Below, in pieces: positions 2 through 40,600 of a DNA stretch of 64,000 nt. Position 1 is the stretch's first letter; every line of letters begins with the position of its first letter. The translations under genes and the position numbers were made by a program. The notes below the pieces were generated by a model, which saw nothing but the letters and a program-made list of their open reading frames with translations, was not told the DNA's origin and searched no databases. The DNA lies in the NCBI GenBank assembly GCA_964431835.1, contig CAYSKO010000001.1, positions 42,131 to 106,130 on the forward strand, written 5' to 3'. Source of the stretch: an uncultured Planctomycetia bacterium (GTDB lineage: Bacteria; Omnitrophota; Gorgyraeia; 2-02-FULL-51-18).

Positions 2-3000
2 TTGCGCCGTTTCTTGGCGAGCGTCGCCGGCGAGGGAACGCGGCGCGTGTCTCCCGAGACGATTCAGGAAGCGGCGAAGCGTGCCCCTAATTTCAACGCC
101 TTCGTGACCGGCCTCCTCAGGGACTACGTGATGCGCCCGCTGTTCGACGACACCCTCGCGCGTACCTGGGGGGACAACGTACCCCAGGGAGCCGCCGCCC
201 GCATCGAGGAAGCGGTATTCTCGGACGTTTATTCGGCCATCCAGCACGATCCGTCCCTGCTCGACCAGTACGTCGCCACCGGCGATATCAAATTCAATCC
301 CGATCCGCTGATTCGCACGAACGAACCGCTCACGGCGCGTGAAAGCGTCGTCAGCAACGTGCTGCTCCTGCCGCTTTCGCAGACGGGCAAGCATTCGCTC
401 GGCATGTTCGGCGCGCAGTGGCCGCTCAACCTCTACGTGACGCGCGAAGTGCTCCAGGGCGTCGCCGACGGCAAAACGCCCGCGCAAATCCTGGCCCGGG
501 TGGATCTTCTCTTCAATCTTTTCACGCCGGTCCTCCTGCGCGAGCTTAAAAAACACAAATTGATCACCGATCCGCCGGACGGAACGCCGCGAAGCGACAA
601 GACGCTGAGCGACGTATACGTCGACACCGACATGTACGATCACCTCGAGATGGCGTTCCGCGATCCGACGATGACGATCGAGCGCGCGCTCGATCTGACG
701 ACCGCCGAGCTCGAGCAAAAGGCGGCGCTGGCCGCCTCCGGAAACGAAGCTGTTCTCGACGAGCTCGCCAAGCTCTATAAGGACAAGAAACGCCTTCTGC
801 TCAAGGCGAACTATCCGCGCGCGTCCGCGGCCTCCGAGAAAAAACGCGGCGTCATCAATTTCTACCTCTTTAAAGTGATCGCCCCCAAATTTGATCTGAA
901 AGGCTACTGGTCGATGAGCCCAGCCCGGCGAACCGTTTTTTACGTCAGCGCCCTTGTCCTCCTGGTGTGCGGCATTTTTCTCGTGCCGGTTTCGCTCGCG
1001 GGCGGTCTCATGCTGATCGCCGCGATTCCTTACGTGCTTCCGCCGCTCCTCATGGGGAACTCCAAGCTTTCCGACCGGATCGCCATGGTGTCGGTCGGCC
1101 TCCTGACCGACTTCTACGTGTTCGGCGTCCTCGTGAACCAGCTTTTCTGGAAATGGGAACTCGTGCAGGAGAACTGGGCGACCCTCGGTTTCTGGGTGAC
1201 CTCCTTCCTCATCGCGCTCATGATGATCCCCACGAAGGCTTCCGTGACGTACCTCGTTCGCGGAGTCCGTGCCTTCTTGATCAACAACGAGACGGCCTGG
1301 TCCGAAACGGCACGGTCGCTCACGGGTTGGCGGTCGGTCTTCAGGCTCCGGGGCCATTGGCCGCAGACGTTCGCCGACTGGTACGCCGAATTCCGCACGG
1401 CGGAAGACGAGACGGGGCCGCTCGTGTCGAATGGGGAAATGATCGGGGAATACCTGACATCGGTGGTCAACGGCCTCTACAACGACAACCGGCTGAGCGC
1501 GGCTGAGCGGGATTCCTGGCTCGCCGGCATCGAAGGGCGGCAGCCGGCCACGGGCGTCGCATTCATGCGCCCGCAGTCCGAAGAAACGTTCGCACTTCTC
1601 CACCGCCAATTCCTGGCGATCAGCCGCAAGAAACCGCGGGCCGACCGTTTCGAAAGCATGCAGGCGAGCTCCTCGCACGTCATGAACGCGGGCGAGCTCG
1701 TGACGCACACCGCGGAGTCCGCGGGATTCCTCGGTACGTTCCATTCGGACCCCGACGACTTCGGCCGCATGAGTTCGTTCGTCGGCTACTGTGCGCGCAC
1801 CCACCCGGCGGAATGGGGGAACGCTCTCGACAAAGTCGCCGCTTGGGCGCCCGCGCCGTACGTACAGGCGCTGCGCCGGCTCGACGAATGGACGGATCCC
1901 GTCGCGGTCGTGTTCGAAGGCCGTGCGCCGGACGGCACGACGCTCCCCGAGATTACGCAGGAAGAACGCCGCCGGATCATGCGCGCCATTCTTGATTTCA
2001 TGGACGTCATTCGCCCGAATGACCGCAAGGGCATCCGGACGTTCGCGAAGGAATTCATCCAGTTCCACCTGAAGGCCGCCGCCGACTCCGGGGACATGGA
2101 ATATCACGGCGCCGTGCGACGGATCGCGCAGACAACCGAATCGCTGCCGGAAGCCCATCGCCGCTTGTCCGCGGCCTCTCTTGAAAGCCTGAGCTCCGAA
2201 GAGCGCGCCTTCGTCGAGCGCTTCCCCGCGTATCAGGCGGCCGTGGCCGTCAAACTCCGCGAGATCTTCCTCAACGTCATGATGGCCGTCCACTTCAACG
2301 CCGATTACGGCGGGGTGAACATCCGTGCAACTCCGGTCGCGGGTCTCTTGGGCGGTCTCGCGGGCCTGGATCTCGCAGGTAGGCCGGATCTCGTCGCGCG
2401 GCGGGACGCGCTCGTCGCCGGTCTACGCGAGTTCGATCCGGCGCAAGCGGCGGATTCCACGAAATTCGCCAGCATGGACACGTTCTCACAAGCGTTCGTG
2501 GTGTGGTACGAGCAAAATCAGGGAGAGTGGCTGACTTTCATCGGTGCGGTTCTCCGCGAGGAGAACGCGATCGACCGTATCGCGGCTACGCTCACGAACG
2601 CCGCCGATCCGGCCGCGATGAGAGCCGCCCTGAACGCCCTGCCGTTCGGCGCCATGCCGGATTTCGGGTGGAAGCGCGAGGATCTCCTCGCGGAGCTCAC
2701 GGACATGGAGCCCGGCAATCTCGCGGCCTGGAAGGCAAAACATGCGGAAGATTTCAAGAAGCTCGCCCGGGGCGCGCAGGTGGGCCGGGTGAAAGGTATA
2801 ATCGGCGGTTTCGAAAACGTCCTTCAGAACGCCACCATCGTGGTGGAATGCGCGAACGTCGGCGCGATCTACGCGTTCCATAACCGCGCCGACACAAATT
2901 TGCCCGGCAACGGCACGAAGAACGGTGCTATCTCCGGCAACCTGCACCTTTATTACTCCCGCTCTTCCAATCTCGACGCGCACGTGCACTCTCTTCAACC

Positions 3001-5539
3001 CGTATTCCGATTCGAATCCATGGCGCTGCAGAGCCGCGTGCGCAATCCGCAGAACCTCGTCGTGAACCCCTCGATGCGCATCTGGGCGTCCGGCGACGCG
3101 TTTCCGGCGACCCGCGATTACGCGGTCGGTCAACACAACTGGACGCAGATCGTTCAGATGGCGGAGAGCGGCCGGCTGACTTTCTACGGCAAGGGTCACA
3201 TCGTGAAGTACATGGTCACCTTCGTCACGCCGCCCGGCGAGGATTCGAGCGATTACCTTGCCCGCCAGCGCACGCAGCCCATCGTCCGGAGCGTTCATGT
3301 TGATTACGACGACGACCTGTGGGGCCGCCCGATGCAGAATCCTCCGCTGAAGGGAACCGAAAAACGTTATTCCTCGAACGTCAGCGCATTCAAGGACGAC
3401 CCGGGCCAGTTCGCCGTCTTCGAGGTGGCAGAACTGGAGCCGGCGACGAAGGACACGCACGACAACTTGTGGTCACTCTATTTTTACGCGGTTTTCGCGA
3501 TTGCGCTCCTGATTATCGTCCCTACGCTACTGCCTTTCTCGGCATTCGCTTCGTTACGGCCGTTCCTGTTCTACGTCACCGCAAGCTTCGTCCTCATGTT
3601 CGCTATCACAAAGAGCAACATTCTCTACAATTGGCGCCTGGAAGGGAGCCTGTGGGTCGGCCTGTGGCGCTGGTTGGCGGATACTTTCCGCGCTACGCCG
3701 TTCTACGCGAGTTTCCAGCCGTTCTACCTGCAGGGCGTGTACGAGACCTCGAACCAGACGTTCGGCTTCGTGCGAACCGTCAAGGAAGCGCTTTTCACTG
3801 GTTATAGTGACCGCACGCGTTTCGATAAGCTCATGGTCTACCACGGGGTTCCCCTGAACTCGACGCTGGGCTTTCTCGGTGTTCTGGCGTTCATGGTTTC
3901 GATGCTCATGATGACGGCGTTTGGTCTGATTCTGTTCCCGTACCTCAACATGGCCATCGGTATCACGAGCGGCGATTACACGCACGGTGTGTTTAAGGAC
4001 CGGCAGGGGAACTTGAAAGGATTTAGCTTCACCCGCCAGTACAAAATGTTCTTCGTCGTCATGGCTTGGACCGCAGGCGTTTACGCCCGGCTTTTCGTCG
4101 AAGGCGCCCGCCGGTTGTTCGGCCGCAGGCCCGGCGCTCCGGGAGCGCCCGCTGCTCCGCCCGCCGCACCGCGTCCCGTTCCGCCCGCGCCTTCCGCCCC
4201 GACCCGCTCCTCCGGCGCCCGCTTGGCGGGGGAGAAGCCCGCAGAATCCCCGTATCTGCTTCCCGTAACGGTGGGTGTGGTGGCCTCGACCGACGCCGAA
4301 TTCCAGGCGAGGACGGAAGCGCTGCGTACGCTGGTCGGATCCGAGCTCGAGCCCGCGTTCTCGTTCGAGCGCGTGGCGGCCGGTGAAGAAGTGCAGTTCG
4401 GCATCGGTGAAGGAACGCCTTTCCGCGTCCTCGTGGATTCCGGCGCTTTCGAAGACTCCGGCGCGGTGTCGGCCCGCGAAACCCTTTTCGGCAATCTGGA
4501 AACCGTCGCCCGGCAGCGCCAGGACCGCATGGAAGCGGAGCTGGCCCGCCAGGAGGTCTTCATGGAGTTCCTTGCGCGTGTGGCGCCGGACGGCTTCTCG
4601 TTGGGCGAAGAAGGAGCCATTGAACGGGCTCTCGACAGGCTCGACGCCGCCGCCCTCGGCGCCGCGCTCCGCTCGATCGCGCTCCCGGATCCGGCCCGTA
4701 TCCGGACGATGGGGACGTCGGCTGGCTTCACGCTCGTGTCCGACGGCCGTTTCCTGCCGCCCGCGCGGCTCGACGAAAACCTTTTGACGCAGCTTTTGGA
4801 GCGCGCCGCCGCTTCCCCCGCCGACACGGACAAGGTCGACGCTCTTCGCGGCGCCCTCTCGCTCGCCATCGGTACGTTGGGTGAGTCGGGCGAGGGTGCT
4901 TTCGCGAGGAACGCCGCCGATGCGATGCGCGTCGTTCTGACCGCGTACGCGAAGATCGTGTCGCAGCAGGGCACGATCCAGCCAACCGACAATTTCGAAG
5001 GCGAAAAGACGATCGCCGTCACGGAAGACATGTTCCGCGCGAACGCGGCGGATTACGTACGCGACGCCCAATACCTGATTTCCAAGAACGACCAGGTGCG
5101 CCTGGCGCTCGTCATTCCGGTCACGCCCGCTTTGCGTAGCCTTTCGAAAGAGGAGCGGGAACGCGCGTACCGGCTCGAAAACCCGGATGCGGGGCTCTTC
5201 CGTCTTGTCTTCGTGGAAGGCCAGCCCGGCTTGGAAAATGTCCGCGCCGCCATCGAAGGACCGTTCATCCTCGCGGGACGCGAGGGAACTCCGGCCAGCG
5301 GCATCGAACGCCGGGACCAGGCCATGCTGATGCAAGTGGATGCACTGGCCAAGACCCACCGCACGACGCTCGTCGTGGCGGCCAAGCTCCTTTACGCCGG
5401 CAAGGACGTGTCCCTGCCCGGCCTTCGCAAGCTCGAAGACGGCGTGTTCCGCTACCTGCCTGCGGTGTCGCCGATCCAGCTCCTGCGCCTCCTGCAGGAA
5501 GCCAACGCCAGCCTCCGCTCGATCTCGTCCTCGGCCTAA
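2..5539 (+). CDS. Giant multi-pass membrane protein, 5'-partial (>1845 aa), function unknown. It has several hydrophobic helix clusters and a Pro/Ala-rich linker (GRRPGAPGAPAAPPAAPRPVPPAPSAP).
   Basis: The ORF is uninterrupted from the window edge. Codon usage matches the neighbouring genes. TM-like hydrophobic stretches are present and the low-complexity PA linker lies at about nt 4130-4215. I recognise no catalytic motif. Confidence 0.6.
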   Translation: MRRFLASVAGEGTRRVSPETIQEAAKRAPNFNAFVTGLLRDYVMRPLFDDTLARTWGDNVPQGAAARIEEAVFSDVYSAIQHDPSLLDQYVATGDIKFNPDPLIRTNEPLTARESVVSNVLLLPLSQTGKHSLGMFGAQWPLNLYVTREVLQGVADGKTPAQILARVDLLFNLFTPVLLRELKKHKLITDPPDGTPRSDKTLSDVYVDTDMYDHLEMAFRDPTMTIERALDLTTAELEQKAALAASGNEAVLDELAKLYKDKKRLLLKANYPRASAASEKKRGVINFYLFKVIAPKFDLKGYWSMSPARRTVFYVSALVLLVCGIFLVPVSLAGGLMLIAAIPYVLPPLLMGNSKLSDRIAMVSVGLLTDFYVFGVLVNQLFWKWELVQENWATLGFWVTSFLIALMMIPTKASVTYLVRGVRAFLINNETAWSETARSLTGWRSVFRLRGHWPQTFADWYAEFRTAEDETGPLVSNGEMIGEYLTSVVNGLYNDNRLSAAERDSWLAGIEGRQPATGVAFMRPQSEETFALLHRQFLAISRKKPRADRFESMQASSSHVMNAGELVTHTAESAGFLGTFHSDPDDFGRMSSFVGYCARTHPAEWGNALDKVAAWAPAPYVQALRRLDEWTDPVAVVFEGRAPDGTTLPEITQEERRRIMRAILDFMDVIRPNDRKGIRTFAKEFIQFHLKAAADSGDMEYHGAVRRIAQTTESLPEAHRRLSAASLESLSSEERAFVERFPAYQAAVAVKLREIFLNVMMAVHFNADYGGVNIRATPVAGLLGGLAGLDLAGRPDLVARRDALVAGLREFDPAQAADSTKFASMDTFSQAFVVWYEQNQGEWLTFIGAVLREENAIDRIAATLTNAADPAAMRAALNALPFGAMPDFGWKREDLLAELTDMEPGNLAAWKAKHAEDFKKLARGAQVGRVKGIIGGFENVLQNATIVVECANVGAIYAFHNRADTNLPGNGTKNGAISGNLHLYYSRSSNLDAHVHSLQPVFRFESMALQSRVRNPQNLVVNPSMRIWASGDAFPATRDYAVGQHNWTQIVQMAESGRLTFYGKGHIVKYMVTFVTPPGEDSSDYLARQRTQPIVRSVHVDYDDDLWGRPMQNPPLKGTEKRYSSNVSAFKDDPGQFAVFEVAELEPATKDTHDNLWSLYFYAVFAIALLIIVPTLLPFSAFASLRPFLFYVTASFVLMFAITKSNILYNWRLEGSLWVGLWRWLADTFRATPFYASFQPFYLQGVYETSNQTFGFVRTVKEALFTGYSDRTRFDKLMVYHGVPLNSTLGFLGVLAFMVSMLMMTAFGLILFPYLNMAIGITSGDYTHGVFKDRQGNLKGFSFTRQYKMFFVVMAWTAGVYARLFVEGARRLFGRRPGAPGAPAAPPAAPRPVPPAPSAPTRSSGARLAGEKPAESPYLLPVTVGVVASTDAEFQARTEALRTLVGSELEPAFSFERVAAGEEVQFGIGEGTPFRVLVDSGAFEDSGAVSARETLFGNLETVARQRQDRMEAELARQEVFMEFLARVAPDGFSLGEEGAIERALDRLDAAALGAALRSIALPDPARIRTMGTSAGFTLVSDGRFLPPARLDENLLTQLLERAAASPADTDKVDALRGALSLAIGTLGESGEGAFARNAADAMRVVLTAYAKIVSQQGTIQPTDNFEGEKTIAVTEDMFRANAADYVRDAQYLISKNDQVRLALVIPVTPALRSLSKEERERAYRLENPDAGLFRLVFVEGQPGLENVRAAIEGPFILAGREGTPASGIERRDQAMLMQVDALAKTHRTTLVVAAKLLYAGKDVSLPGLRKLEDGVFRYLPAVSPIQLLRLLQEANASLRSISSSA

Positions 5540-5651: not shown

Positions 5652-5728
<77 letters not shown>

Positions 5729-5739
5729 ATGTAACGCAA

Positions 5740-5940: not shown

Positions 5941-7992
5941 TTGTCCCCGCGTAATTCCTGCCTTCCGAAAGACGAGGACGAAGTGAAGATTTCTGTCGAA
6001 GTAAAACCTGATTTCCTCCAACGCTTGATTGGCGTCAAAAATCCTGTAATCAATCTTTCCGAGCTCATCTGGAACGGCTTCGACGCAGATGCGTCTGAGG
6101 TCAAGGCTTCCCTCGACCTGAGCGAGCTTGGTGCGATTGATGAGATCCGCGTGTCTGACAACGGTCACGGAATGCCGCATGCGGAGGCGCTGATCGCATT
6201 CAAGGATCTTGGCGGATCCTTAAAGCAGTCCAAAATCAAATCGTCCAGCGGTCGCATGCTACATGGTAAAGCCGGAAAGGGGCGCTTTCGTGCCCTGGGC
6301 CTCGGGCAAAAGGTCGAGTGGATCACGCACTACAAGAAGGACGGTGATGTCTACGAATATCGGATCATCGGGACCGCAGCAGATCCCGGCACATTTGAGA
6401 TCGAAGACGAGAAACCTTCAACGCGCAGATCGACGGGCACGGAAGTGCGGATCACCGGCGTGCGGGATTTCCGAAAACTAACGCTCGAGGGCGGCGGCTT
6501 GTACGAGATCGCCACAAACTTCGCTCTTTATCTCCGCCAATATCCGAAAGTCTCTCTCTACTATGAGGGGCAAAAGGTTAACCCTTCTAATGTGCAGGAA
6601 CACGAGGAAGACTACCAGATCACTGGCGTCCAACTTCCCGGCGGCCGTCAAGTAAATGCAACATTGACTGTCATTGAGTGGACGCCTGCGGTTGAGCGTG
6701 CTCTTTACCTCTGCGATCAGAGCGGCTTCTCGCTCGAAAAAACTGCGCTGGGCATCCACGCTTCGGGTTTCAACTATACCGGCTATCTCAAGTCTGACCT
6801 GATCCGCGAGCTGGACAACGATGGCACATTGCAGCTTGATGAACTGAATGATAAGCTCGTGCCACTTTTAGACGCAACGAAGACGAAACTGAAGGAACAC
6901 TTCCGAAAGCGCTCGGCTTTGAAGGCCTCCGATGTTGTCAATACATGGAAGAACAAAAATATCTATCCGTTCAAAGACGCGCCGCAGAACCAGGTCGAGG
7001 TCGTCGAACGGCAGGTCTTTGACGTGGTCGCGATTAACCTGCACCACTACCTTCCTGATTTTGACAAGTCGAGTGATAAGAACAAACGCATCCAGCTGGA
7101 GCTCCTCCGGCAGACGCTGGAGACCAGTCCCGAGATCGTACAGAAGATCATGCGTGATGTGCTCGAGCTGCCGAAGGAGAAACAGCAGGAGTTTGCTGAG
7201 CTCCTCGAAAAGACGACACTCTCGGCTGTCATCAACGCCTCGAAGGTTGTTGCCAACCGCCTGAACTTCATCAAGGGTCTAGAGGCTGTGGTGTACGAGC
7301 ACGACATTAGCAAGAAAGTGAAGGAACGCGAGCATCTTCATCAGATCCTCACCCGGGAGACCTGGCTTTTTGGCGAAAAGTTCAATCTATCAGTGAGCGA
7401 CGGCGCGTTGACGACCGTGCTTCGCAAACACTACTTGCTGGCAGGGCGTACTACCGACGACATCGACCCAATCTACAGGGAGGACGGTACAGCCGGGCGT
7501 GTGGACCTCATGTTCTCCAAGCGGATTCCACATCATGACAACCGGCTCGAGCACCTGGTCGTGGAGCTCAAACGACCAGGAACGGTTTTGGATAGCTCGA
7601 TGGCCAATCAGATTGAGAGCTATGCGCTCAAAGTTTCCACCGACGAGAGATTTCAGAGCGTAGGCGCAAAATGGACCTTCTGGCTCATATCGAACGATAT
7701 GACTCCGGAGCTGCGGGCCAAGATTCGCCAGGCAAACCGGGAGGAAGGTATTCTGCTACAAACAGATGGTATCGTTGTTTGGGTTAAAACGTGGGCGCAG
7801 ATAATTGAGGAATGCAGCGGCAGGCTGCGCTTCTTCCAAGAAAAGCTAGAGTTCGGTGCGGATCAGAGCTCTGGGATCGAATACCTTAAGAAAATGCACG
7901 CGAAGTACCTTCCGAAAGATCTACAAAAAGAACCCCAAAGCCAGAACGGTACGGTTGTAGTTGCCAAGAGCGCCAACTTATCATCGCGGTGA
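5941..7992 (+). CDS. GHKL-family (MORC / HATPase_c_3-like) ATPase with a C-terminal putative PD-(D/E)xK nuclease-like region
   Basis: The N-terminal Bergerat-fold motifs are the N-box 'ELIWNGFDADASEV' and the G1-box 'IRVSDNGHGMP'. The C-terminal region has 'GRVDLMFSK...HLVVELKRPG', which is a D...E-x-K arrangement. The ORF opens at TTG 5941, but the start is more likely GTG 5983 because it follows a GAGGA RBS. The gene lies in an AT-richer block immediately 3' of the tRNA. Confidence 0.6.
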   Translation: MSPRNSCLPKDEDEVKISVEVKPDFLQRLIGVKNPVINLSELIWNGFDADASEVKASLDLSELGAIDEIRVSDNGHGMPHAEALIAFKDLGGSLKQSKIKSSSGRMLHGKAGKGRFRALGLGQKVEWITHYKKDGDVYEYRIIGTAADPGTFEIEDEKPSTRRSTGTEVRITGVRDFRKLTLEGGGLYEIATNFALYLRQYPKVSLYYEGQKVNPSNVQEHEEDYQITGVQLPGGRQVNATLTVIEWTPAVERALYLCDQSGFSLEKTALGIHASGFNYTGYLKSDLIRELDNDGTLQLDELNDKLVPLLDATKTKLKEHFRKRSALKASDVVNTWKNKNIYPFKDAPQNQVEVVERQVFDVVAINLHHYLPDFDKSSDKNKRIQLELLRQTLETSPEIVQKIMRDVLELPKEKQQEFAELLEKTTLSAVINASKVVANRLNFIKGLEAVVYEHDISKKVKEREHLHQILTRETWLFGEKFNLSVSDGALTTVLRKHYLLAGRTTDDIDPIYREDGTAGRVDLMFSKRIPHHDNRLEHLVVELKRPGTVLDSSMANQIESYALKVSTDERFQSVGAKWTFWLISNDMTPELRAKIRQANREEGILLQTDGIVVWVKTWAQIIEECSGRLRFFQEKLEFGADQSSGIEYLKKMHAKYLPKDLQKEPQSQNGTVVVAKSANLSSR

Positions 7993-8026
7993 TTGAACCT
8001 ACCCAAAAAACATTTAGGATTTACAG

Positions 8027-8869
8027 GTGACAACTCAGTCTAGTGGGCCTATTCAAGAAAAATTACACGACATAGCGCGTAGTATGATTGAGATACAATT
8101 CGCGGAGAACGAAAAGCGCCTTCAGCATGATATCAACGATATTAAATGTAAGTTGGCCGCGCGAGGTGTTTTGCATTCTGGTATGACCGCAAAGCTAATT
8201 CACGATCTTTGCGACAGAGAAATTGAGACTCGCGCTTTCATCGTTTGGAGGTCTTACCAGAAAGTTATTGCAGCCGGAATTGATACATTAGCAGGCTTAG
8301 CCGATGAGTTACGATCAAAGGTCAGTGGGTATGTTTCTCAGGAAGCACCCAAATTGATCCAGGAAGCTCAAAGGATAAATAAACTTATCGGAATGGGCCC
8401 AGATCAACAGGTTGAGCAAGCGAAAGATCACGCTCTGAAGAAAGTCTTTGCCGAGATCGATTTATTTGTGCACACTGTTGAAAACAGGTCCAAGGAAGCC
8501 GCCAAGACCGGCGCGTCGGGCAGTGTCATTCAACAGATTATAAATTCAACTATTGGGGCGAATCAGGTCGGCGCGAACTCTATCGCAAGCGTGAATATGA
8601 CCATAGGCTCTCAAACTCGCACGGACATTCTTGAAGCGCTAAAATCGGTCAAGGCCGCGGCAGATTCAGTTGAATCGTTACCGGGTTGTCAAAAAGAGGA
8701 GTTTGCTGAGCTGGTTATTGAAGCTGAAACCGAGGTTAAAAAAGAGTCTCCTAATCGCCTCAAACTCGGCAGTGCTCTTACTGCGATCGCGACTACCATA
8801 CAGACTGTGGGAAGTATGAGAGCCGCATATGAAGTGCTGAAGCGCGCTCTTATGTTTTTTACGGCATAA
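8027..8869 (+). CDS. Hypothetical alpha-helical protein, the partner gene of the GHKL ATPase
   Basis: It lies 34 nt downstream on the same strand. It has a GTG start with an AGGA RBS. It has no recognisable motifs and is predicted to be largely helical. It shares the low-GC composition of the upstream gene. Confidence 0.5.
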   Translation: MTTQSSGPIQEKLHDIARSMIEIQFAENEKRLQHDINDIKCKLAARGVLHSGMTAKLIHDLCDREIETRAFIVWRSYQKVIAAGIDTLAGLADELRSKVSGYVSQEAPKLIQEAQRINKLIGMGPDQQVEQAKDHALKKVFAEIDLFVHTVENRSKEAAKTGASGSVIQQIINSTIGANQVGANSIASVNMTIGSQTRTDILEALKSVKAAADSVESLPGCQKEEFAELVIEAETEVKKESPNRLKLGSALTAIATTIQTVGSMRAAYEVLKRALMFFTA

Positions 8870-9021
8870 GCGTACCTTAGAACCAAATAAATAAAGCTCG
8901 ACCCATCCCGACCTTGCGGCCTTAAAATTTAAGATAAGCGGCCCAACTTTAAATCGAAGCGGCTAATTATTTATAATTCAAAACTGTAGAAGTTTCCAGG
9001 CTGGAATTTTGAAAGCTTTGT

Positions 9022-9127
9022 AGTTACGGGACCAAGTCCCAAAGTACATAGTTGAACGAAATTAGCCTCCTGTGTCGTCTTATAAGATAAGGAGGCTTTC
9101 TTTATGCCCAGAAAACCACGAATCTCA
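9022..9127 (+). repeat. 106-bp direct repeat, copy 1. It is a duplicated left end of the RAYT/IS200-like element and includes the first 25 nt of the transposase ORF.
   Basis: It is identical to 11373-11478. It contains GTAG followed by the palindrome GGGACcaaGTCCC, the RBS-sequestering hairpin, and ATGCCCAGAAAACCACGAATCTCA, which here runs into a 20-codon stub. Confidence 0.85.
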
Positions 9128-9249
9128 GGCGTTTTTCGGGCCTACCCCCCGTTAGTTTCTTTTAATCCCGCTTTAATCGTTCTCTAACCCCGAATAACTT
9201 ACAATCAAGTACGTGAAGTCTGTCCACTTACAACGGCGGGGGGGGGTCC

Positions 9250-10764
9250 TTGATTCGACGCATCTTACGCTCGACGAAAAATAAAAACGCCTCGGGACGC
9301 GAGAGGCTGGAAAAAATTCTCACCGGCATCAAAGGATTTGATCATATCACCGGGGGAGGGCTGCCGAAGAACCGGTCCACGCTCATTTGCGGAGGTCCGG
9401 GTTCCGGCAAGACTCTCTGGGGTGTCGATTTTCTCGTGAAGGGCGCGACTCTTTACCGCGAACCGGGCGTGTTCGTCTCTTTTGAAGAGACCGCGGACGA
9501 GCTGTATAAAGACGCGGCTTCCCTGAATATAGACTTGAAAGCGCTCGTCACGCGGAAAAAAATTCGGATCGAGCATATCCTTTTGGAACGCAAGGACGTC
9601 CAGGAAAGCGACTTCAGCCTCGAGGGGACACTTATCGGCCTCGAGCACGCGATCGATTCCGTCGGCGCCAAGCGCGTGGTCCTGGATTCGTTCGAATCGC
9701 TGTTCGCGGGCATCGCGGACGCGGGCATCCTCCGCTTGGAAATAAAGAGGCTTTTCCGCTGGCTCAAGGAGAAGGGAGTCACTTCGCTAGTGACCGGCGA
9801 ATCAGCGCACGCGTCCATGAGCAGCCGCGGGCTCGAGGAGTATATTTCCGACTGCGTCATTTTTCTCGACAACCGGGTGCACGATCAGATCGCCGTCCGC
9901 AGGGCCCGTATCACCAAATACCGCGGCTCGAGCCACGGCACCAACGAATATCCGTTCGTCATCGATGACGAAGGCCTTTCGTTCATTCCCATCACCGCCA
10001 CCGCGCTCGACCGTCCCGGCACGTCCAAAAAGATCTCGACGGGCATCCCGTCGCTCGACCGTCTGTTCGGCGGCCCCGGGGGGGCAAGGGGCTATACCCG
10101 AGGCAGCTCGGTGCTCGCTTCGGGTACCGCGGGAACCGGAAAGACGAGTCTCGCGGCCGCTTTCGCAGCGGGTAGGTGCCGTCAGCGCGAGCGGTGCCTG
10201 TTCCTGTCCTACGAAGAATCCCCGGGGCAGCTCATCCAGAATATGAGCTCCATCGGTTTCGACCTCAAGCCCTTCATCAAGAAGGGGCTCCTCAAGATCG
10301 TGTCCACACGGCCTTCTCTTTTCGGCCTCGAGAGGCATCTGCTTGATCTCTACAAGATCATCGAGGAGTTCAAGCCGAAGGCCGTCATCATCGACCCTTT
10401 GACGAGCCTCGTCGCGGTGGGCAGCCCGCGCGAGATCGAATCCATGGTCACGCGCATGATCGACCTGTTGAAATCTAGAGGCATCACGGCGTTCTTCACG
10501 AGTCTCGTTTCTTCGGCCGCTGAAAATTACACCAGCGGCGAGATCGGCGTCTCGTCCCTGATCGACACCTGGATCGTCGTCCGGGAGATCGAGCTGGACG
10601 GCGGCAAGAAGCGCGTGCGCGGCCTTTACATCGTCAAATCCCGGGGCATGAGCCATTCCAGCGACATCCACCGGCTGATCATGAGCGACGAGGGGCTCGT
10701 GCTCAAGGCCATGGATGAAGGGCCCCCGGCTCAGCAGCAAAGGTCTAGCCATGCAAACCCCTAA
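9250..10764 (+). CDS. KaiC-like double RecA-superfamily ATPase
   Basis: There are two Walker A motifs, GGPGSGKT and GTAGTGKT, each preceded by a 'GIxxLDxxxGGG'-type loop. At about 504 aa it is typical of KaiC/RadA-like proteins. The apparent start is TTG and is uncertain. Confidence 0.75.
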   Translation: MIRRILRSTKNKNASGRERLEKILTGIKGFDHITGGGLPKNRSTLICGGPGSGKTLWGVDFLVKGATLYREPGVFVSFEETADELYKDAASLNIDLKALVTRKKIRIEHILLERKDVQESDFSLEGTLIGLEHAIDSVGAKRVVLDSFESLFAGIADAGILRLEIKRLFRWLKEKGVTSLVTGESAHASMSSRGLEEYISDCVIFLDNRVHDQIAVRRARITKYRGSSHGTNEYPFVIDDEGLSFIPITATALDRPGTSKKISTGIPSLDRLFGGPGGARGYTRGSSVLASGTAGTGKTSLAAAFAAGRCRQRERCLFLSYEESPGQLIQNMSSIGFDLKPFIKKGLLKIVSTRPSLFGLERHLLDLYKIIEEFKPKAVIIDPLTSLVAVGSPREIESMVTRMIDLLKSRGITAFFTSLVSSAAENYTSGEIGVSSLIDTWIVVREIELDGGKKRVRGLYIVKSRGMSHSSDIHRLIMSDEGLVLKAMDEGPPAQQQRSSHANP

Positions 10765-11359
10765 ACCCCGTTTCATCGTCGGCATCGGAGGATCGGCGGG
10801 AGGCCTAGACGCTTATATGAAGTTCCTCGACGCCCTTCCGGAGGACACCGGAATGGCTTTCGTCATCATTTCCCACATCCTTCCCACCGAGTCCCACAGC
10901 CTCTTGGCCGAAATCCTGGCGAAACACACGAAAATGCCGGTCCGCGTGACCGCCGCGGAGATGCCCGTCCGGCCGGACCATGTCTACGTGATCGCTCCCA
11001 ACGTGGACCTTCGAATCGAAGACTATACCTTCAAACCCACCGCCCCGCGCACGATGAACAAGCAGGTGGACATCTTCCTGACCTCTTTGGCGAGCGCGAT
11101 GGGCGAGCACGCGATCGGCATCATTTTTTCGGGATATGACGGAGACGGCTCACAGGGCTGCATGGAAATCAAGTTGAGAGGCGGCACGACGTTCGCCCAG
11201 GATAGCTCGGCCATCGTGAACGGCATGCCCGTGAGCGCGCAGAGGTCCGGCTACGTCGACCACGTGCTTCCGCCCGGAGAAATGGGCGCCGCGCTCGAGA
11301 AATGGGCAGACGCCTTTGACACCCACCCCAGCGGGTTCGGGCATTTACTCACCACGTGA
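10751..11359 (+). CDS. Stand-alone CheB-type methylesterase domain protein, probably the truncated N-terminus of a CheB-CheR-PAS-kinase gene
   Basis: The CheB_methylest pattern is 'IVGIGGSAGGLDA...IISHIL...GYDGDGSQG'. Its sequence is homologous to the N-terminus of the 46422 gene through '...HPSGF', and it then ends at the boundary of the RAYT repeat. Confidence 0.65.
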   Translation: MQTPKPRFIVGIGGSAGGLDAYMKFLDALPEDTGMAFVIISHILPTESHSLLAEILAKHTKMPVRVTAAEMPVRPDHVYVIAPNVDLRIEDYTFKPTAPRTMNKQVDIFLTSLASAMGEHAIGIIFSGYDGDGSQGCMEIKLRGGTTFAQDSSAIVNGMPVSAQRSGYVDHVLPPGEMGAALEKWADAFDTHPSGFGHLLTT

Positions 11360-11372
11360 GGTTACGGGACCA

Positions 11373-11478
11373 AGTTACGGGACCAAGTCCCAAAGTACAT
11401 AGTTGAACGAAATTAGCCTCCTGTGTCGTCTTATAAGATAAGGAGGCTTTCTTTATGCCCAGAAAACCACGAATCTCA
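11373..11478 (+). repeat. 106-bp direct repeat, copy 2. It is the native left end of the RAYT/IS200-like element.
   Basis: It is identical to 9022-9127. It is preceded by a partial tandem copy 'gttacgggaccaa' at 11361-11373. Confidence 0.85.
11415..11448 (+). promoter_or_regulatory. Stem-loop that sequesters the transposase RBS (AGCCTCCT ... AGGAGGCT)
   Basis: 8-bp inverted repeat arms enclose an 18-nt loop. The 3' arm is the AGGAGG Shine-Dalgarno, 7 nt before the ATG at 11455. This is analogous to the translational-repression hairpin of IS200. Confidence 0.5.
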
Positions 11479-12063
11479 AGCGCTTCCGGGCTTTATCACT
11501 TCATCGCTCGGGGAATGAATAAGAAGACTCTTTTTCATAAACATTCGGATTATAAGGCGTTTGAGGATCTAATGGCCGAGTATCTAACAAAGTTGGATAT
11601 GCGGCTGTACCACTATTGCCTCATGCCCAATCATACCCACTTGCTCGTTTCGGCGGTCGATGTCGGCCTGCTCAGCAGGTTCGCGCATTTCGTTCATCGC
11701 CGGTACACGTATCATTATTGCAGGGCCTATGGATGGTCGGAGCAGCTGTTCAATAGGAGGTTCCGGAGTATTCCTATTGAGAGTGACGGTTATTTACTGG
11801 AATGCGGGCGTTACATAGAGAGGAATCCTCTCAAGTCGAATAGGGTCCAGGATGTGGGAGATTATCCTTATTCAAGTTATGGTTTTTACGTTGTTGGAGC
11901 AGCATCGGCTTTTATAACGCGTAATCCCATGTATGATACCTTTGGAAGGACAGAAGAGGAGAGGCGGCAAGCCTATAAGGCATATCTTTTGACGCCAAGG
12001 CCTTATGAGTCGTTATTAGACGAAACGATTTCTAACTATGTACCTGTGGACTTGGTCCGGTAA
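11455..12063 (+). CDS. IS200/IS605-family Y1 (HUH) transposase, REP-associated tyrosine transposase (RAYT)-like
   Basis: The HUH motif is 'YHYCLMPNHTHLLV' and the catalytic Tyr region is 'RYIERNPLK'. The size (202 aa) fits a RAYT. A GTAG-palindrome lies upstream. Confidence 0.75.
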   Translation: MPRKPRISSASGLYHFIARGMNKKTLFHKHSDYKAFEDLMAEYLTKLDMRLYHYCLMPNHTHLLVSAVDVGLLSRFAHFVHRRYTYHYCRAYGWSEQLFNRRFRSIPIESDGYLLECGRYIERNPLKSNRVQDVGDYPYSSYGFYVVGAASAFITRNPMYDTFGRTEEERRQAYKAYLLTPRPYESLLDETISNYVPVDLVR

Positions 12064-12100
12064 ACCGGTAAACGGTAAAAAACCGGTAAACGGTAAACAT
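12056..12100 (+). repeat. Short tandem repeat (c)cggtaaa, about 5 copies
   Basis: The sequence ccggtaaa-ccggtaaa-cggtaaaaaa-ccggtaaa-cggtaaa spans the RAYT stop codon. Confidence 0.7.
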
Positions 12101-12136
12101 GCTGAATTGCATACGGACACACAGAGGGAAGAAAAA

Positions 12137-12661
12137 ATGAAGAAATGCGGGATTCGGGATCTTGAAGAGGTTCTTAAAAAAACAAGCGATTGTCAGGTTG
12201 TCGACGTGCGCGAACCGGCTGAGTTTGAATCCGAACATATCCAGGGAGCTTTCTCGTTGCCGTTGTCCGCTCTCCGGGAGGATAACACGAAGGTTTTTAA
12301 AAAAGAGAAGGCGCTTTATCTTTTATGCCGGAGCGGAAATCGCGCCTGCAAAGCGGCGGATCAATTGGAGAGATTCGGATTTTCAGATCTATACGTGGTT
12401 GAGGGGGGTCTTGAAGCCTGGGCTGGCGCGGGCAAGCCCGTGCTTCGGGGATCCCGCCGTGTGTGGAGCCTGGACCGTCAGGTGCGTTTTGCCGCGGGTT
12501 CGCTGGTGATGAGCGGCGTCCTCTTTTCAAAATTTGTTAATCCCTATTGGCTGGGTCTGTCGGTATTTGTCGCGGCCGGCCTTATTTTTTCGGGAATCAC
12601 CGACACCTGCGGCATGGCCATGCTCCTTGCCCGGATGCCCTGGAATCAAAAGAAAGCGTAG
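12137..12661 (+). CDS. Rhodanese-domain protein with a C-terminal DUF2892/YgaP-like membrane segment
   Basis: The rhodanese active-site loop is 'LYLLCRSGNRA'. The C-terminus is hydrophobic ('WLGLSVFVAAGLIFSGITDTCGMAMLL'). Confidence 0.65.
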   Translation: MKKCGIRDLEEVLKKTSDCQVVDVREPAEFESEHIQGAFSLPLSALREDNTKVFKKEKALYLLCRSGNRACKAADQLERFGFSDLYVVEGGLEAWAGAGKPVLRGSRRVWSLDRQVRFAAGSLVMSGVLFSKFVNPYWLGLSVFVAAGLIFSGITDTCGMAMLLARMPWNQKKA

Positions 12662-12667
12662 GTTCTT

Positions 12668-14308
12668 ATGAAACTATTGATCGTTGGCGGCATTGCGGGA
12701 GGCGCGTCATGCGCGGCCCGGGCAAGGAGGCTTTCAGAACAGGCAGAAATCATTCTCTTTGACCGGGGACCCTTCGTGTCCTTCGCCAACTGCGGATTGC
12801 CCTACTATGTCGGCAATGTCATCAAGGAAGAAAAAAACCTTCTGGTGGCTACGCCGGAGCTTTTCAAAGAGCGGTTTAATATACAGGTCCGTACTGAAAG
12901 CGACGTTTTATCTATCGACCGCGCCAATAAAAAAATCCAGGTTAAGGACCTCAAATCGGGGAGCATTTATTGGGAATCATACGACGCGCTGGTGCTTTCG
13001 CCGGGAGCTGCGCCGATTCGTCCGCCGCTTCCGGGCATTGATCTTCCCGGTATCTTTGCCTTGCGCACGATTCCGGATAGCCGCCGCATTCTCCAATGGA
13101 TCTCGGAGAAAAAAGCCAAAGACGCCGTGATCATCGGCGGAGGTTTTATCGGGCTTGAGATGGCTGAAAATCTGGTCCGCTGCTGCATTCACACGTCCGT
13201 GCTTGAAATGCAGCCTCAGGTGTTGCCTCCTTTTGATCGGGAAATGGTTTTTGGACTTCACGAACATTTGAAATCCAGGGGCGTGACTCTGTATCTAGGC
13301 GATGCTCTGACGGGGTTCGAAGCGGACGCGGACGGGAAGATCACGGTGTTATCCAAGTCCGGCTTGAAACTCAGAACGGATATCGTCATTCTTTCTATCG
13401 GGGTGAAGCCGGAAATCACGCTCGCCAAAAATTGTGGACTAGAAACCGGCGAACGAGGCGGGATTCGCGTCAATGATCAAATGAGAGCCTCTGATCCCAA
13501 GATATGGGCTGTCGGGGATGCCGTGGAAAAACGTGATTTCCTTACGAGTGAGTGGACGACCATTCCGCTGGCCGGACCGGCCAACCGTCAGGGGAGAGTT
13601 GCGGCCGATAGTATCTTTGGCCGTGATTCAAAGTTCAGGGGAGTCCAGGGAACCGCTGTTTGCAAAGTATTCGACCAGGTAGCCGCCATGACCGGAGCCA
13701 GCGAAAAGGCCCTTCGGCGGTTGGGTAAGACTTACGAGAAAGTTTATCTGCATCCCGGCCATCACGCGGGATATTATCCGGATGCCAAACCCATTCATTT
13801 AAAACTTTTGTTTTCTCCTCAGGATGGGCGCGTGTTGGGAGCTCAGGCGATTGGCGAGGAAGGTGTGGAAAAACGCATCGACGTGATCGCGATGGCCATT
13901 CAGATGAAGGCAACAGTTTATGATCTGGAAGAGGCAGAGCTTTGCTATGCGCCTCAGTTCGGCGCGGCCAAAGATCCAGTGAACATTGCCGGCATGATCG
14001 CCGCCAACGCGTTGAGAGGTGACGCGCCCCTTGCTCAGTGGGATGGAATCGATTTGAAGAAGGACTTTTTTTTGGATGTGCGAAATAAGGAAGAATATAA
14101 AAAGAGCCACGTTGGGGGAGCACTCAACATTCCCCTAAATCATTTAAGATCGGAAATGAACAGGCTCCCCCGCGATCGTGCGATCTATGTTTATTGCGGA
14201 GTGGGGCAAAGGGCCTATTACGCGACACGGGTACTCCTCGAAAACGGATTCGATGCTAGAAATATTTCAGGCGGCATCCAGACTTTTGATGGGCAGATTT
14301 CCGGCTAA
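12668..14308 (+). CDS. CoA-disulfide reductase / NADH oxidase-family flavoprotein with a C-terminal rhodanese domain (CoADR-RHD)
   Basis: The FAD-binding N-terminus is 'KLLIVGGIAGGASCA', with the redox Cys in 'SFANCGLPY'. A second dinucleotide fold is 'VIIGGGFIGLE'. The C-terminal rhodanese loop is 'IYVYCGVGQRA'. Confidence 0.75.
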   Translation: MKLLIVGGIAGGASCAARARRLSEQAEIILFDRGPFVSFANCGLPYYVGNVIKEEKNLLVATPELFKERFNIQVRTESDVLSIDRANKKIQVKDLKSGSIYWESYDALVLSPGAAPIRPPLPGIDLPGIFALRTIPDSRRILQWISEKKAKDAVIIGGGFIGLEMAENLVRCCIHTSVLEMQPQVLPPFDREMVFGLHEHLKSRGVTLYLGDALTGFEADADGKITVLSKSGLKLRTDIVILSIGVKPEITLAKNCGLETGERGGIRVNDQMRASDPKIWAVGDAVEKRDFLTSEWTTIPLAGPANRQGRVAADSIFGRDSKFRGVQGTAVCKVFDQVAAMTGASEKALRRLGKTYEKVYLHPGHHAGYYPDAKPIHLKLLFSPQDGRVLGAQAIGEEGVEKRIDVIAMAIQMKATVYDLEEAELCYAPQFGAAKDPVNIAGMIAANALRGDAPLAQWDGIDLKKDFFLDVRNKEEYKKSHVGGALNIPLNHLRSEMNRLPRDRAIYVYCGVGQRAYYATRVLLENGFDARNISGGIQTFDGQISG

Positions 14309-36398: not shown

Positions 36399-36449
36399 GG
36401 GCCGCTCATAACCCGAAGGGCGTGGGTTCAAATCCAACCTCCGCTGCCA
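36399..36449 (+). repeat. Partial, diverged copy of the 3' half of the tRNA-Met (anticodon loop to CCA); a putative att-site remnant
   Basis: The sequence is 'gctcataacccgaagggcgtgggttcaaatccaacctccgctgcca'. It matches 5684-5728 at about 44 of 50 positions. It is in the same orientation as the intact tRNA. No 5' half, D-arm or intact anticodon stem is present upstream. Confidence 0.6.
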
Positions 36450-36460
36450 ATAAACGCAAA

Positions 36461-37689: not shown

Positions 37690-40600
37690 TTACGTGGTAA
37701 CTTGGCCCAAAACGACGCGGATCTGATGGCTCATTTGGTCGTCCGCCAGGACGATACCTTCCAGGCGGCGCAGTGGCCGGCCGTCCATTTCCATGGACCG
37801 CACGCCTCGTGAAACGCGGTCCGGATTCTCGGTCTTGATCTGGTAGCGCGTCGATCCGTGCAGGAAAGACAGCTCAAACCCTTCCCACGATGCCGGAATG
37901 CACGGATCAAAGAAGAGGGTGTTCCCCCTCAGACGAAATCCAAGAATCGATTCGATACCCGCCCGGTACATCCAAGACGCTGAACCGGTGTACCACGTCC
38001 ATCCGCCCCGACCCGTATGCGTGGATCCGGCGTAGACGTCTCCCGCCATCACGTAGGGCTCGACCTTATAGCGCTCGATATCGATCCGTGTGCTCGCGTG
38101 ATTGATCGGATTGAGTAAAGAGAAGAGCTCTCCCGCCGAATTGCCGTCTCCCGATGCCGCGAAGGCAAGAAGGGCCCAGACGCCCGCGTGCGTGTACTGC
38201 CCGCCGTTTTCGCGGATGCCGGGCAGGTAGCCTTGGATGTAGCCGGGGCTAGGTTTCATTTTATCGAAGGGCGGCGTTAGGAGTAGGACCAAGCCATCCT
38301 TTTTGCGAACCAGATGTTCACGGAGGGAGGCCATGGACCGTGCGGCGCGTGCGGGATCCGCGGCACCCGACAAGACTCCCCAAGATTGGGCGATTGAATC
38401 GATCCGGCATTCCTCGTTGACGGCCGAGCCCAGAGGCGTGCCGTCGTCAAAAAAAGCGCGTCGATACCAGCCGCCGTCCCAGCCGTGGTGCTCGACCGCA
38501 GTCTTCAGATCTCCGGCGTGTAAGCGCCATTTTTCGGCGCGGGCATGTTCGTTCGTCGACTCGGCCACTTTTGAAAATTCGCGGAGGGTCGCGTGGAGAA
38601 ACCAAGCCAGCCAGACGCTTTCGCCTTTTCCTTCATGGCCCACACGGTTCATGCCGTCATTCCAGTCGCCGGTGCCCATGAGGGGCAGGCCATGGCTGCC
38701 TACGGCCAGGCTCCGGTCGAGTGCGCGGGCGCAGTGCTCAAAGAGCGTTGCGCATTCCGCCGAAACGAGGGGCTGAAAATAAGCGTCCTCTCTTCCTTCG
38801 GGAATCGTCTGGCCCTCGAGAAAGGCGACGGATTCTTTCAAGATGCCGCGATCGCCGGTGACCTCGATATATTGCATCACGACGTAAGCCAGCCAAACGA
38901 GATCGTCGGAGATCCGCGTACGCACGCCGCGGCCCGATGGCGGATGCCACCAATGCTGGACGTCGCCCTCGGGAAACTGCCGCGCCGCGGCGCGGAGAAT
39001 GTGTTCGCGGGCGATGTCCGGCCTCGACACCAGGAGCGCCATCACGTCTTGAAGCTGGTCGCGGAAGCCGTAAGCGCCTCCCGCCTGATAAAAACCGCAG
39101 CGCGCCCACACCCGGCAGGCCAGCGTCTGATAAAGCAGCCAGCGGTTCAGTAAGAGATCCATCGAGCGGTCCGGCGTCCGAACTTGCACCTTTTCCAAAA
39201 CACCGGCCCACTGTTCTTTCACTTCGGAAAGGACGGCGTCGATGTCCGCCGTGCGGTAGCGCCGGATGAGTTCACCTGTCGCGGCGCGGTCCGCTCCCTG
39301 GCCGAGAAGGAATACGATTTCGATCCGCGCGCCCGGCCGCAGATCGATCGTTTTTTGAAACGCCGCGCACGGATCGAGGCCCGGGCCGGATTTTCCGGAC
39401 AACCGCGCACCTTTGGCGATCGCGGCAGGCAGGTCGTAAGTGCCGTTGCGCCCCAGAAATTCGGAGCGGTCGGCGGTCCAGGCGGTCTGCTGTCCGCCCA
39501 AGTCGGCGAAGGCCACCCCTTGAGCGAACTCGGTGTTCCAGGGATTGCGTGCCAAGATCGCCCCAGTTTGGGCGTCTACCTCCGTAATGACGAACGGGGC
39601 GTTGGAGGCACGCGAGCTTCCCAGCACCCATTCGACGTAAGCGGTGACTGATAGCTTCCTCCGGCGGTCGGACTGGTTCGTGACGCTCAAGCGGGAAATC
39701 TTGACCGGGTCCGCCACGGGGACGAATTGCAAGAGCTCGAGCGCGATGCCGTGGGAAACGTGCTCGAAACGGCTGTATCCCTGGCCGTGACGCGAAACGT
39801 AGGGCCACGCTTCTTCGCGAATAGGCAGAACGGTCGGGGTCCAGAATTCGCCCGTCTCTTCATCGCGTACGTAAAAAATCTCTCCGGACGGGTCTGAGGC
39901 GGGGTCGTTGGACCAAGGCGTGAGCTGGTTTTCGCGGCTGTTGCCGGCCCAGGTATAACCGGAACCCGATTCTGAAACCTGAAAACCGAACCCGGGATTG
40001 GCGATTACGTTGATCCAGGGGGCGGGTGTCCACTGGCCTGTCCCCAAATGGGTGATGTACTCGCTGCCGTCGGACGAGAAACCTCCCAGCCCGTTAAAAA
40101 ACTGAAGCCGGGATAACTCGGCAGGCGTTTTGAGCGGTGGCGCGGCCTTCGCCTTACGGCGCAGCGGCGGGCGAAAATCAACAGGCTCTTCCAGGCGCGC
40201 GAGCTGCTGCATGAGCGAGCCGTTGCGGCTGTTCAGAATGACCCGTGCGGCCGTGCGCAAGAGAGTTTGCTCTTCAGCGGAAAGTATTTCGGCCCGTAGG
40301 ACGAAGATGCCGCCTTGCAGGTCCGCCGCATCGTGTTTGTGAATGGCTTGCGTGGACCGGACGAGATTTTCAAGGGACGCCTGCAGTTCCTGCGAATACG
40401 AATGCGCTTTTTCGTTCAGGATGACCAGATCCACCGCGAGATTTTTCATCCGCCAGTATTCGCGGGCGCGCAAAGCGTCCCGTACGATACCGGCATCCTC
40501 CGCTTCGTTGATGCGTACGAGCAGGATCGGGAGGTCGCCGGAAATTCCGTAGGGCCATAGTCCGGCGGGCCCGAGCGTATTTCGCGCGAGAATGTCCTGA

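Follow-up and report, generated by a model that had tools for sequence, protein, structure and literature searches.

A RAYT-like Y1 transposase gene in a REPtron-like setting, with a putative IS200-like translational lock and apparently scarred ends, in an Omnitrophota genome

The REP-associated tyrosine transposases (RAYTs, or TnpA_REP) are Y1 HUH enzymes with a single catalytic tyrosine, and to our knowledge the mechanism by which they act on repetitive extragenic palindromes (REPs) is still unknown. Among the other Y1 HUH systems, the peel-and-paste transposon IS608 cleaves after a flanking TTAC. A REPtron-like arrangement has been described for the TnpA_REP classes, some atypical subclasses of which lack the GT[AG]G tag, and it seems that REPtrons do not move as units (PMC6006769). 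The left end of the insertion sequence (IS) IS200 has the same layout as the one described below, and its helix that sequesters the Shine-Dalgarno (SD) element is experimentally repressive (PMC4513863). Here we describe a transposase locus at positions 9,022 to 12,100 of a 64-kb stretch of Omnitrophota DNA (contig CAYSKO010000001.1; the whole stretch is called the window). The locus is a RAYT-like Y1 gene in a REPtron-like setting, with a putative IS200-like translational lock and informative patterns at its ends that we read as scars, and as such belongs to a known type of element. We read 11361-12064 as a roughly 0.7-kb REPtron-like unit in which the gene of a RAYT-type Y1 HUH single-strand-DNA nuclease/transposase lies between inverted REP-like arms, and a second copy of its left end further upstream (copy 1) as the remnant of a tandem copy of the unit. 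We give this reading a probability of about 0.6. The coordinates of the features are collected in Table 1, and contigs and loci found in the searches are given by our own handles (L001 and so on).

The open reading frame (ORF) of the transposase matched the Pfam profile Y1_Tnp (PF01797) over profile positions 6-121 of 121, scoring 44.7 bits where the cut-off is 23 (E = 1.8e-11). The motifs N59-H60-T-H62-LLV and R119-Y120-IERNP were invariant when it was aligned to 20 homologues. The original prediction, which was made from the sequence alone, had named a RAYT/IS200-like Y1 transposase and had pointed to a missing HUH motif or tyrosine as grounds for doubt; H60, H62 and Y120 were found in all 21 sequences, and the prediction stood. 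A profile search of PDB sequences placed E. coli TnpA_REP (4ER8) first with 5.5e-4 and ISDra2 TnpA (2XM3) next with 3.8e-3, which is a marginal gap. An AlphaFold model of the transposase (pLDDT 89.7) had its best Foldseek match in the same 4ER8 structure, the E. coli RAYT-REP complex (E = 1.6e-8, TM 0.75, 159 columns). The matches to the IS200, IS608 and ISDra2 TnpA structures gave E values of 6e-6 to about 1e-5 over 112-127 columns. The C-terminal YIxxNP...[WY]xxSS[YF] region also aligns with that of the E. coli RAYT. Judged from the modelled fold and the alignments, the transposase is a Y1 HUH enzyme closer to the RAYTs than to the IS200-type transposases.

The gene is flanked by an inverted repeat of 30 nt with 87% identity (arms 11375-11404 and 12034-12063), which the first reading of the sequence had missed. 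Left and right ends are thus inverted copies of one another, which places the gene between hairpin arms of opposite orientation. The hairpin of the arms has a 5-bp GC stem and is preceded by GTTAC at the left end or TTTACC at the right end. A homologue search gave 948 matches, mostly in metagenome-assembled genomes (MAGs) of Candidatus Omnitrophota and, except for one identical sequence, at no more than 58% identity; some of these genomes carry 2-3 diverged paralogues. An inverted repeat of 20-45 nt flanks the gene in about 60 of 76 related loci (z > 7), with the left arm 50-140 nt before the ATG, the right arm at the stop codon, and a short GC palindrome in each. Thus, flanking inverted hairpin arms are a trait of the family.

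Within 10 kb on either side of the relatives the arms usually occur only twice. Extra direct copies were seen in only 4-5 of the about 55 relatives with enough flanking sequence. In L093 a true REPIN doublet (13483-13543) is situated 3 kb away from the gene, and solo copies of the arm are present in L040 and L083. L051 carries two full, near-identical tandem copies flanking about 1 kb, and in L071 and L077 duplicated left ends enclose cargo genes. The order in L077 is REP, orphan RHS tip and immunity gene, REP, transposase gene, inverted REP, with each REP starting 2-4 nt past a stop codon. RHS proteins also adjoin the transposase gene in L043, L048, L059 and L068.

The setting resembles that of the described RAYTs (E. 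coli YafM, PDB 4ER8; Pseudomonas RAYTs; TnpA_Y1 class 2 subclasses, PMC6006769) in the Y1 HUH fold with its single tyrosine, in the short inverted hairpin repeats flanking the gene, in the occurrence of the repeat at other extragenic sites in metagenomes of the same habitat, and in the REPIN doublet near one relative. It differs from them in its tags, which are GTTAC/TTTACC where RAYT systems have GT[AG]G, in the shortness of its hairpin stem, in the few copies of the repeat around the gene, in the length of its protein, which exceeds that of the E. coli RAYT by about 40 aa, and in having a structured SD-sequestering 5′ untranslated region (UTR) and an extra orphan left end that includes this UTR and some codons. 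With the IS200 group of the IS200/IS605 family it shares a length of about 0.7 kb, a single Y1 transposase, and a left end with a terminal hairpin followed by an SD-sequestering stem-loop. The two ends of IS200, however, do not form an inverted repeat, and both are read on one strand.

Each copy of the left end contains, in this order, GTTAC, the palindrome GGGACcaaGTCCC, a spacer, the pairing sequences AGCCTCCT and AGGAGGCT around the SD sequence, and the ATG with seven further codons. The anti-SD AGCCTCCT (9064-9071 and 11415-11422) pairs with AGGAGGCT (9090-9097 and 11441-11448) in both minimum free energy (MFE) and centroid folds. In 60 relatives the SD was paired to its upstream partner with a mean probability of 0.74, compared to 0.46 when the upstream sequence was shuffled, and the probability exceeded 0.8 in 33 of the 60. 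RNAalifold gave no consensus on a MAFFT alignment of 28 UTRs, since the variable loop disrupts the alignment, and per-sequence folding with counts of pair types was used in its place. Among 39 non-identical relatives, per-sequence MFE folds gave the pair adjoining GGAGG on its 3′ side as C-G in 10, G-C in 7, T-A in 6 and A-T in 6. Four Watson-Crick pair types at one helix position indicate compensatory change, and by this count the SD helix is kept by compensatory changes across the relatives. The hairpin that was proposed to bury the SD of the transposase is thus borne out both by folding of the 5′ UTR and by covariation. By analogy with IS200, the helix would normally repress translation of the transposase.

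The motif CGTCT in the loop of the SD hairpin (for instance at 11425-11432) and TTGAA(A/C)GAAA upstream of it are conserved in many relatives. A search of Rfam at E ≤ 1 over 8800-12300 returned no family, and no sigma-70 promoter was predicted within the left end. On the minus strand a terminator-like stem of 8 pairs with a T-rich tail lies opposite the start codon (9094-9117 and 11445-11468); it is reminiscent of the IS200 antisense small RNA (sRNA) art200, a likeness that is not sRNA evidence.

Outside the arms, the unit is accompanied by shortened copies of its ends. The partial left-end copy is matched at the right end by the array CCGGTAAA (12057-12098), which Tandem Repeats Finder (TRF) reports with a period of 7-8 in 5 copies and also as 18 nt repeated twice. 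An extra partial unit before copy 2 and a (c)cggtaaa array had both been pointed out before, and both are present. They are not unrelated oddities: the left 13-nt unit and the right array are one phenomenon at both outer ends. When each end is read on the strand that gives 5′-(G)TT(T)AC, shorter copies of 6-27 nt precede the full arm and share its 5′ start. The left partial unit is polymorphic, as its length of 13 nt in the window rises to 27 nt in the Joint Genome Institute (JGI) contig L001. The right array is 22 nt longer in L004 (SRR6448207), where it includes a 13-nt TTTACCGGACCAA unit that mirrors the one at the left end. The nested pattern recurs at other sites of the REP of the window (L010, L012, L014) and at arms of relatives with unrelated sequence (L027, L037, L045, L057, L062, L063, L087, L091). 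Counted over all, 28 of 108 arms of relatives carry nested partial copies, compared to 7.9% of random positions (p = 1.3e-8). Nested partial copies are therefore a family-wide trait that is polymorphic between samples.

HUH chemistry predicts such a pattern, in which the 5′ anchor is fixed and the 3′ end varies, and we infer that the partial copies are scars of nicking, extension and religation. The enzyme would nick just 5′ of (G)TTAC, on the top strand at the left end and on the bottom strand at the right end, and the cut 5′ end would stay on Tyr120. The free 3′-OH would occasionally be extended by a few nucleotides before religation, which would leave nested 5′-anchored partial copies at the outer ends. 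Single-strand HUH chemistry, hairpin recognition and a TTAC-containing cleavage context would be shared with IS608 and ISDra2. Unlike in these transposons, the GTTAC of the window is part of the repeated unit, with the putative nick 5′ of it and 5 nt from the hairpin foot, tnpB is missing from the locus, and the ends are inverted. Insertion of one REP into another was also considered as a source of the partial copies and was rejected, as the 3′ remainder expected of the interrupted REP is missing beyond the right end.

The palindrome GGGACCAAGTCCC occurs in the window exactly only at 9028-9040 and 11379-11391, and with two mismatches at 12047-12059 on the minus strand. It had been described as following GTAG or GTTA. 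The palindrome itself is exact, but GTAG is a chance neighbour of copy 1 alone (9020-9023) and is not conserved; what is conserved as the tag is GTTAC, which starts 20 of 20 copies and is preceded by a variable base. A metagenome scan with the arm yielded, in four samples, nine JGI contigs that share with the window just a 25-45-nt unit, GTTACGGGACCAAGTCCCAAAGTAC(ATAGTTG)(CCTGCCGTACCAGG). These copies, from the same habitat as the window, lie at unrelated sites with at least ten distinct outer flanks and are mostly tandem or direct. Doublets (REPINs, or bacterial interspersed mosaic elements, BIMEs) were not seen in the window. The hairpin can thus be called REP-like, as it was at first, on account of the inverted arms and of the at least ten unrelated metagenome sites; a dense REP family, or another copy in the window, did not come to light.

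Many of the metagenome copies border orphan RHS toxin cassettes on the 5′ side; in the contigs with such cassettes, a single inner sequence stands behind at least five different outer flanks. Same-orientation REP copies edge the 5′ side of orphan RHS (YD-repeat) toxin-tip and immunity cassettes at L014 857-3596, L010 52-271, L016 1682-1804 and L077 8505-9880, and the REP array of the cassette in L077 ends with the transposase gene. In L014 (2611-3293; the same as in L011) the transposase gene orfB of an IS3-family element is truncated right at the GTTAC end of the unit. From the at least ten outer flanks, the RHS edges and the IS3 gene, the outer end of the unit therefore seems to behave as the terminus of something mobile or recombining.

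The two left ends, 9022-9127 and 11373-11478, form a direct repeat. That they are identical over 106 bp was noted from the start and was confirmed at 106 of 106 nt. A repeat of this length in 64 kb cannot be chance. If extended, the match covers 113 nt at 98%; it fades over 9128-9144 to 13 of 17 nt with one indel, and then ends. Copy 1 had been described as followed by a 20-codon stub of the transposase, which was not found: by translation the ORF has 27 codons, of which 8 are shared with the transposase. The window thus contains one intact transposase gene and one stub.

Between the two left ends lies a kaiC-cheB module. Its cheB stop codon is 2 nt before the first GTTAC, and the nearest KaiC homologues are likewise each followed by a CheB-only gene of 192-213 aa. 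As the nearest KaiC loci carry this stand-alone gene, we rejected the idea that the cheB is a truncated CheB-CheR-kinase fusion, of which many distant homologues exceed 1000 aa. The proposal that the 2.3 kb between the copies are a rearrangement product holds only in so far as an orphan left end lies upstream; the contents are an intact kaiC-cheB module and no scrambled debris. Both kaiC-cheB and the transposase gene are still enclosed between the orphan left end and the right end, in the fashion of a composite element. No homology was found between the region upstream of kaiC and L097, L099 or L100. L097 (6001-8170; SRR6448212) carries a second kaiC-cheB pair from another organism in the same samples, with a KaiC 73% identical to that of the window; the surroundings of this pair are ordinary chromosome, free of REP units.

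Most probably, copy 1 is what was left of a second element in tandem. Another copy of the unit would once have stood upstream of the intact kaiC-cheB module, as in the relative L051, and a deletion would have removed this copy beyond codon 8-13, with its junction within the 17-nt homeologous patch at 9128-9144. Several observations weigh against this history or against the REPtron-like reading of the unit. Local alignment of 9128-9249 turned up nothing left of a deleted gene or right end, and over 9128-9300 on both strands a search for a decayed gene or right end scored below the shuffle mean. Neither an empty site nor an excision junction was found. A left end of the copy-1 type, including the 9128-9144 patch, stands behind a DNA methylase gene in L009, which a one-off deletion does not easily explain unless L009 is a strain variant of the window locus; the exact methylase protein occurs only on this 2256-nt contig itself. 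The transposase scored 56.9 bits on the NCBIfam RAYT equivalog REP_Tyr_transpos (NF047646), which is under the cut-off of 80. The arm hairpin is weak (5 bp, -3.7 kcal/mol, z = -1.6), and hairpin-driven replication slippage could contribute to the partial copies. Finally, the search for further palindromes, suggested with the original prediction, gave a divided answer. No unit copy beyond the locus was present in the 64-kb window and the exact-pattern REP scan of GTDB representative genomes gave 0 matches, as did that of viral contigs, while the further copies were those at the metagenome sites described above.

The alternative that survives best, although we consider it unlikely, is that direct left ends or REPs are HUH recombination sites and that the left end with kaiC-cheB was inserted as a cassette at a resident left end's nick site by way of a single-strand circle. 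Direct-REP arrays would then be the signature of captured gene cassettes, and the transposase would stand last in the array. The order in the window (left end, cargo, left end, gene, inverted right end) is as this would have it, and so is L077, where REPs 2-4 nt past stop codons frame an RHS tip and immunity gene ahead of the transposase gene and the inverted REP. Same-orientation REPs also punctuate the RHS orphan cassettes of L010, L014 and L016, in which one inner sequence meets at least five outer flanks; RHS cassettes, however, are repeated for reasons of their own. The copy-1 left end with its 17-nt patch follows a different gene in L009, and the GC content of the cargo (0.596) is that of the host flanks and not that of the putative island around it. 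Against this stand the rarity of extra direct copies (4-5 of about 55 relatives) and the lack of any circle junction or empty site. The duplicated stretch, moreover, holds the UTR and 8 codons beyond the REP, which points to a truncated gene copy. RAYT-mediated gene capture has no known biochemical precedent, and the apparent failure of REPtrons to move as units (see above) counts against it as well. In its general form, the idea would make the direct-orientation REP or left-end units of the Omnitrophota RAYT family sites for integron-like capture and stacking of gene cassettes by HUH chemistry, with kaiC-cheB, RHS tips and immunity genes as cargo. We regard this as speculative and improbable; if true, the nested 5′-anchored partial copies would record the nick and religation cycles of a cassette system.

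It is also rather improbable that the locus is an ordinary autonomous IS of the IS200 group and not a RAYT, with the dispersed units as solo ends or derivatives resembling miniature inverted-repeat transposable elements (MITEs), and with all partial repeats due to hairpin replication slippage. A size of about 700 bp, a single Y1 gene and a two-hairpin left end including the SD-sequestering one are exactly as in IS200, and the 2-3 paralogues in several genomes, the two near-identical copies in L051 and the low REP density around the relatives would suit such an element. The ends, however, are inverted repeats family-wide, unlike those of the IS200/IS605 family, and the fold and the C-terminal YIxxNP...SS[YF] region fit TnpA_REP better than the IS200, IS608 and ISDra2 transposases. 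The REPIN doublet 3 kb from the gene in L093 also speaks against it, and simple slippage does not predict partial copies that always share a 5′ anchor while their 3′ ends vary.

The locus itself was recovered from three independent sequencing runs and one JGI metagenome. All of the Logan unitigs (L002-L008, k = 31, from three runs) stop 30 nt into a repeat copy, and they confirm the four junctions without linking them. The JGI contig L001 contains cheB, the partial unit, all of copy 2, the gene, the right end and a rhodanese gene. Since L001 fixes one pairing, the remaining two junctions can pair only as in the window, and the arrangement of the window is real. An assembly artefact, in which the 106-bp repeat was misresolved and kaiC-cheB came from elsewhere, another organism or a circle, could be argued from the break of all unitigs within the repeat, which leaves linkage unshown, and from a cargo GC unlike that of its neighbours, but is highly improbable given that L001, from another sample, spans the whole repeat and that the junction on the cheB side has its own allele-specific partial units (13 nt and 27 nt).

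The locus lies in a wider region of unusual composition. The 3′ half of a tRNA-Met gene (5652-5728) is repeated directly over about 57 nt with about 89% identity (5683-5739 and 36404-36459), and the repeats bracket 30.7 kb with a GC content of 0.44-0.57, whereas the outer flanks have at least 0.6. This stretch looks like an integrated island, and the transposase locus would be 3.3 kb inside it; no integrase was found among the ORFs scanned. The GC of the cargo (9250-11359) matches the high-GC flanks of the window, whereas most of the putative island, taken in segments of 1 kb, has about 0.45-0.55. Immediately upstream of the orphan left end (5941-8869) the genes look defence-like, with a HATPase_c_3/restriction-enzyme-like protein and a 280-aa protein that has a weak match to PADLOC PDC-M14B. 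In L009 (118-2099) the DNA methylase gene stands where the window has these genes. An ORF of 1845 aa (2-5539) had no Pfam match and showed no synteny with the giant proteins encoded upstream of the gene in L051 and L071. On the minus strand, 37690-46314 encodes a GH94 protein of 2874 aa that is similar to cyclic beta-1,2-glucan synthase.

Table 1. Features of the transposase locus and its cargo (positions in the window).
Feature	Position	Strand	Description
Left end, copy 1 (orphan)	9022-9127	+	100% identical to 11373-11478
Parts of copy 1		+	GTTAC tag 9023-9027; hairpin GGGACcaaGTCCC 9028-9040; anti-SD 9064-9071; SD 9090-9097; ATG 9104; first 8 codons
Stub ORF, 27 codons	9104-9187	+	Codons 1-8 as in the transposase; 9128-9144 is a 13/17 homeologous patch, no similarity beyond
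kaiC-like double-RecA ATPase gene, full length (cargo 1)	9250-10764	+	Pfam KaiC 2.1e-101; NCBIfam PRK09302 586.7 bits, above cut-off
Stand-alone CheB-methylesterase-domain gene, complete (cargo 2)	10715-11359	+	Pfam CheB_methylest 1-174 of 174
Partial left-end copy, 13 nt, 5′-anchored	11361-11373	+	GTTACGGGACCAA; TRF period 13, 2.2 copies
Left end, copy 2 (functional)	11373-11478	+	REP-like hairpin 11379-11391; SD-sequestering stem-loop 11415-11448; gene start
Y1 HUH (RAYT-like) transposase, 202 aa	11455-12063	+	HUH motif H60-T-H62; predicted catalytic Tyr120 in RYIERNP
Right end	12034-12063	-	Inverted left-end arm; minus strand reads TTACCGGACCAAGTCCACAGGTACATAGTT; overlaps the last ten codons of the ORF (nine sense and stop)
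Nested 5′-anchored partial right-end copies	12057-12098	-	Minus strand reads TTTACCG, TTTACCGG, TTTTTTACCG, TTTACCGG, then full arm

For the reading of MAGs it matters that the 106-bp repeat breaks short-k assemblies exactly at this locus. For the biology of these elements, the family points to a candidate nick site that would lie 5 nt from the hairpin foot, on the 5′ side of (G)TTAC, and that is marked at both ends by polymorphic nested partial duplications. It also provides a conserved SD-sequestering 5′ UTR of a type known so far from IS200, and repeated cases in which direct copies of an end bracket cargo genes. Taken together, the locus and its relatives extend RAYT/REP-like systems to an uncultivated phylum, the Omnitrophota.

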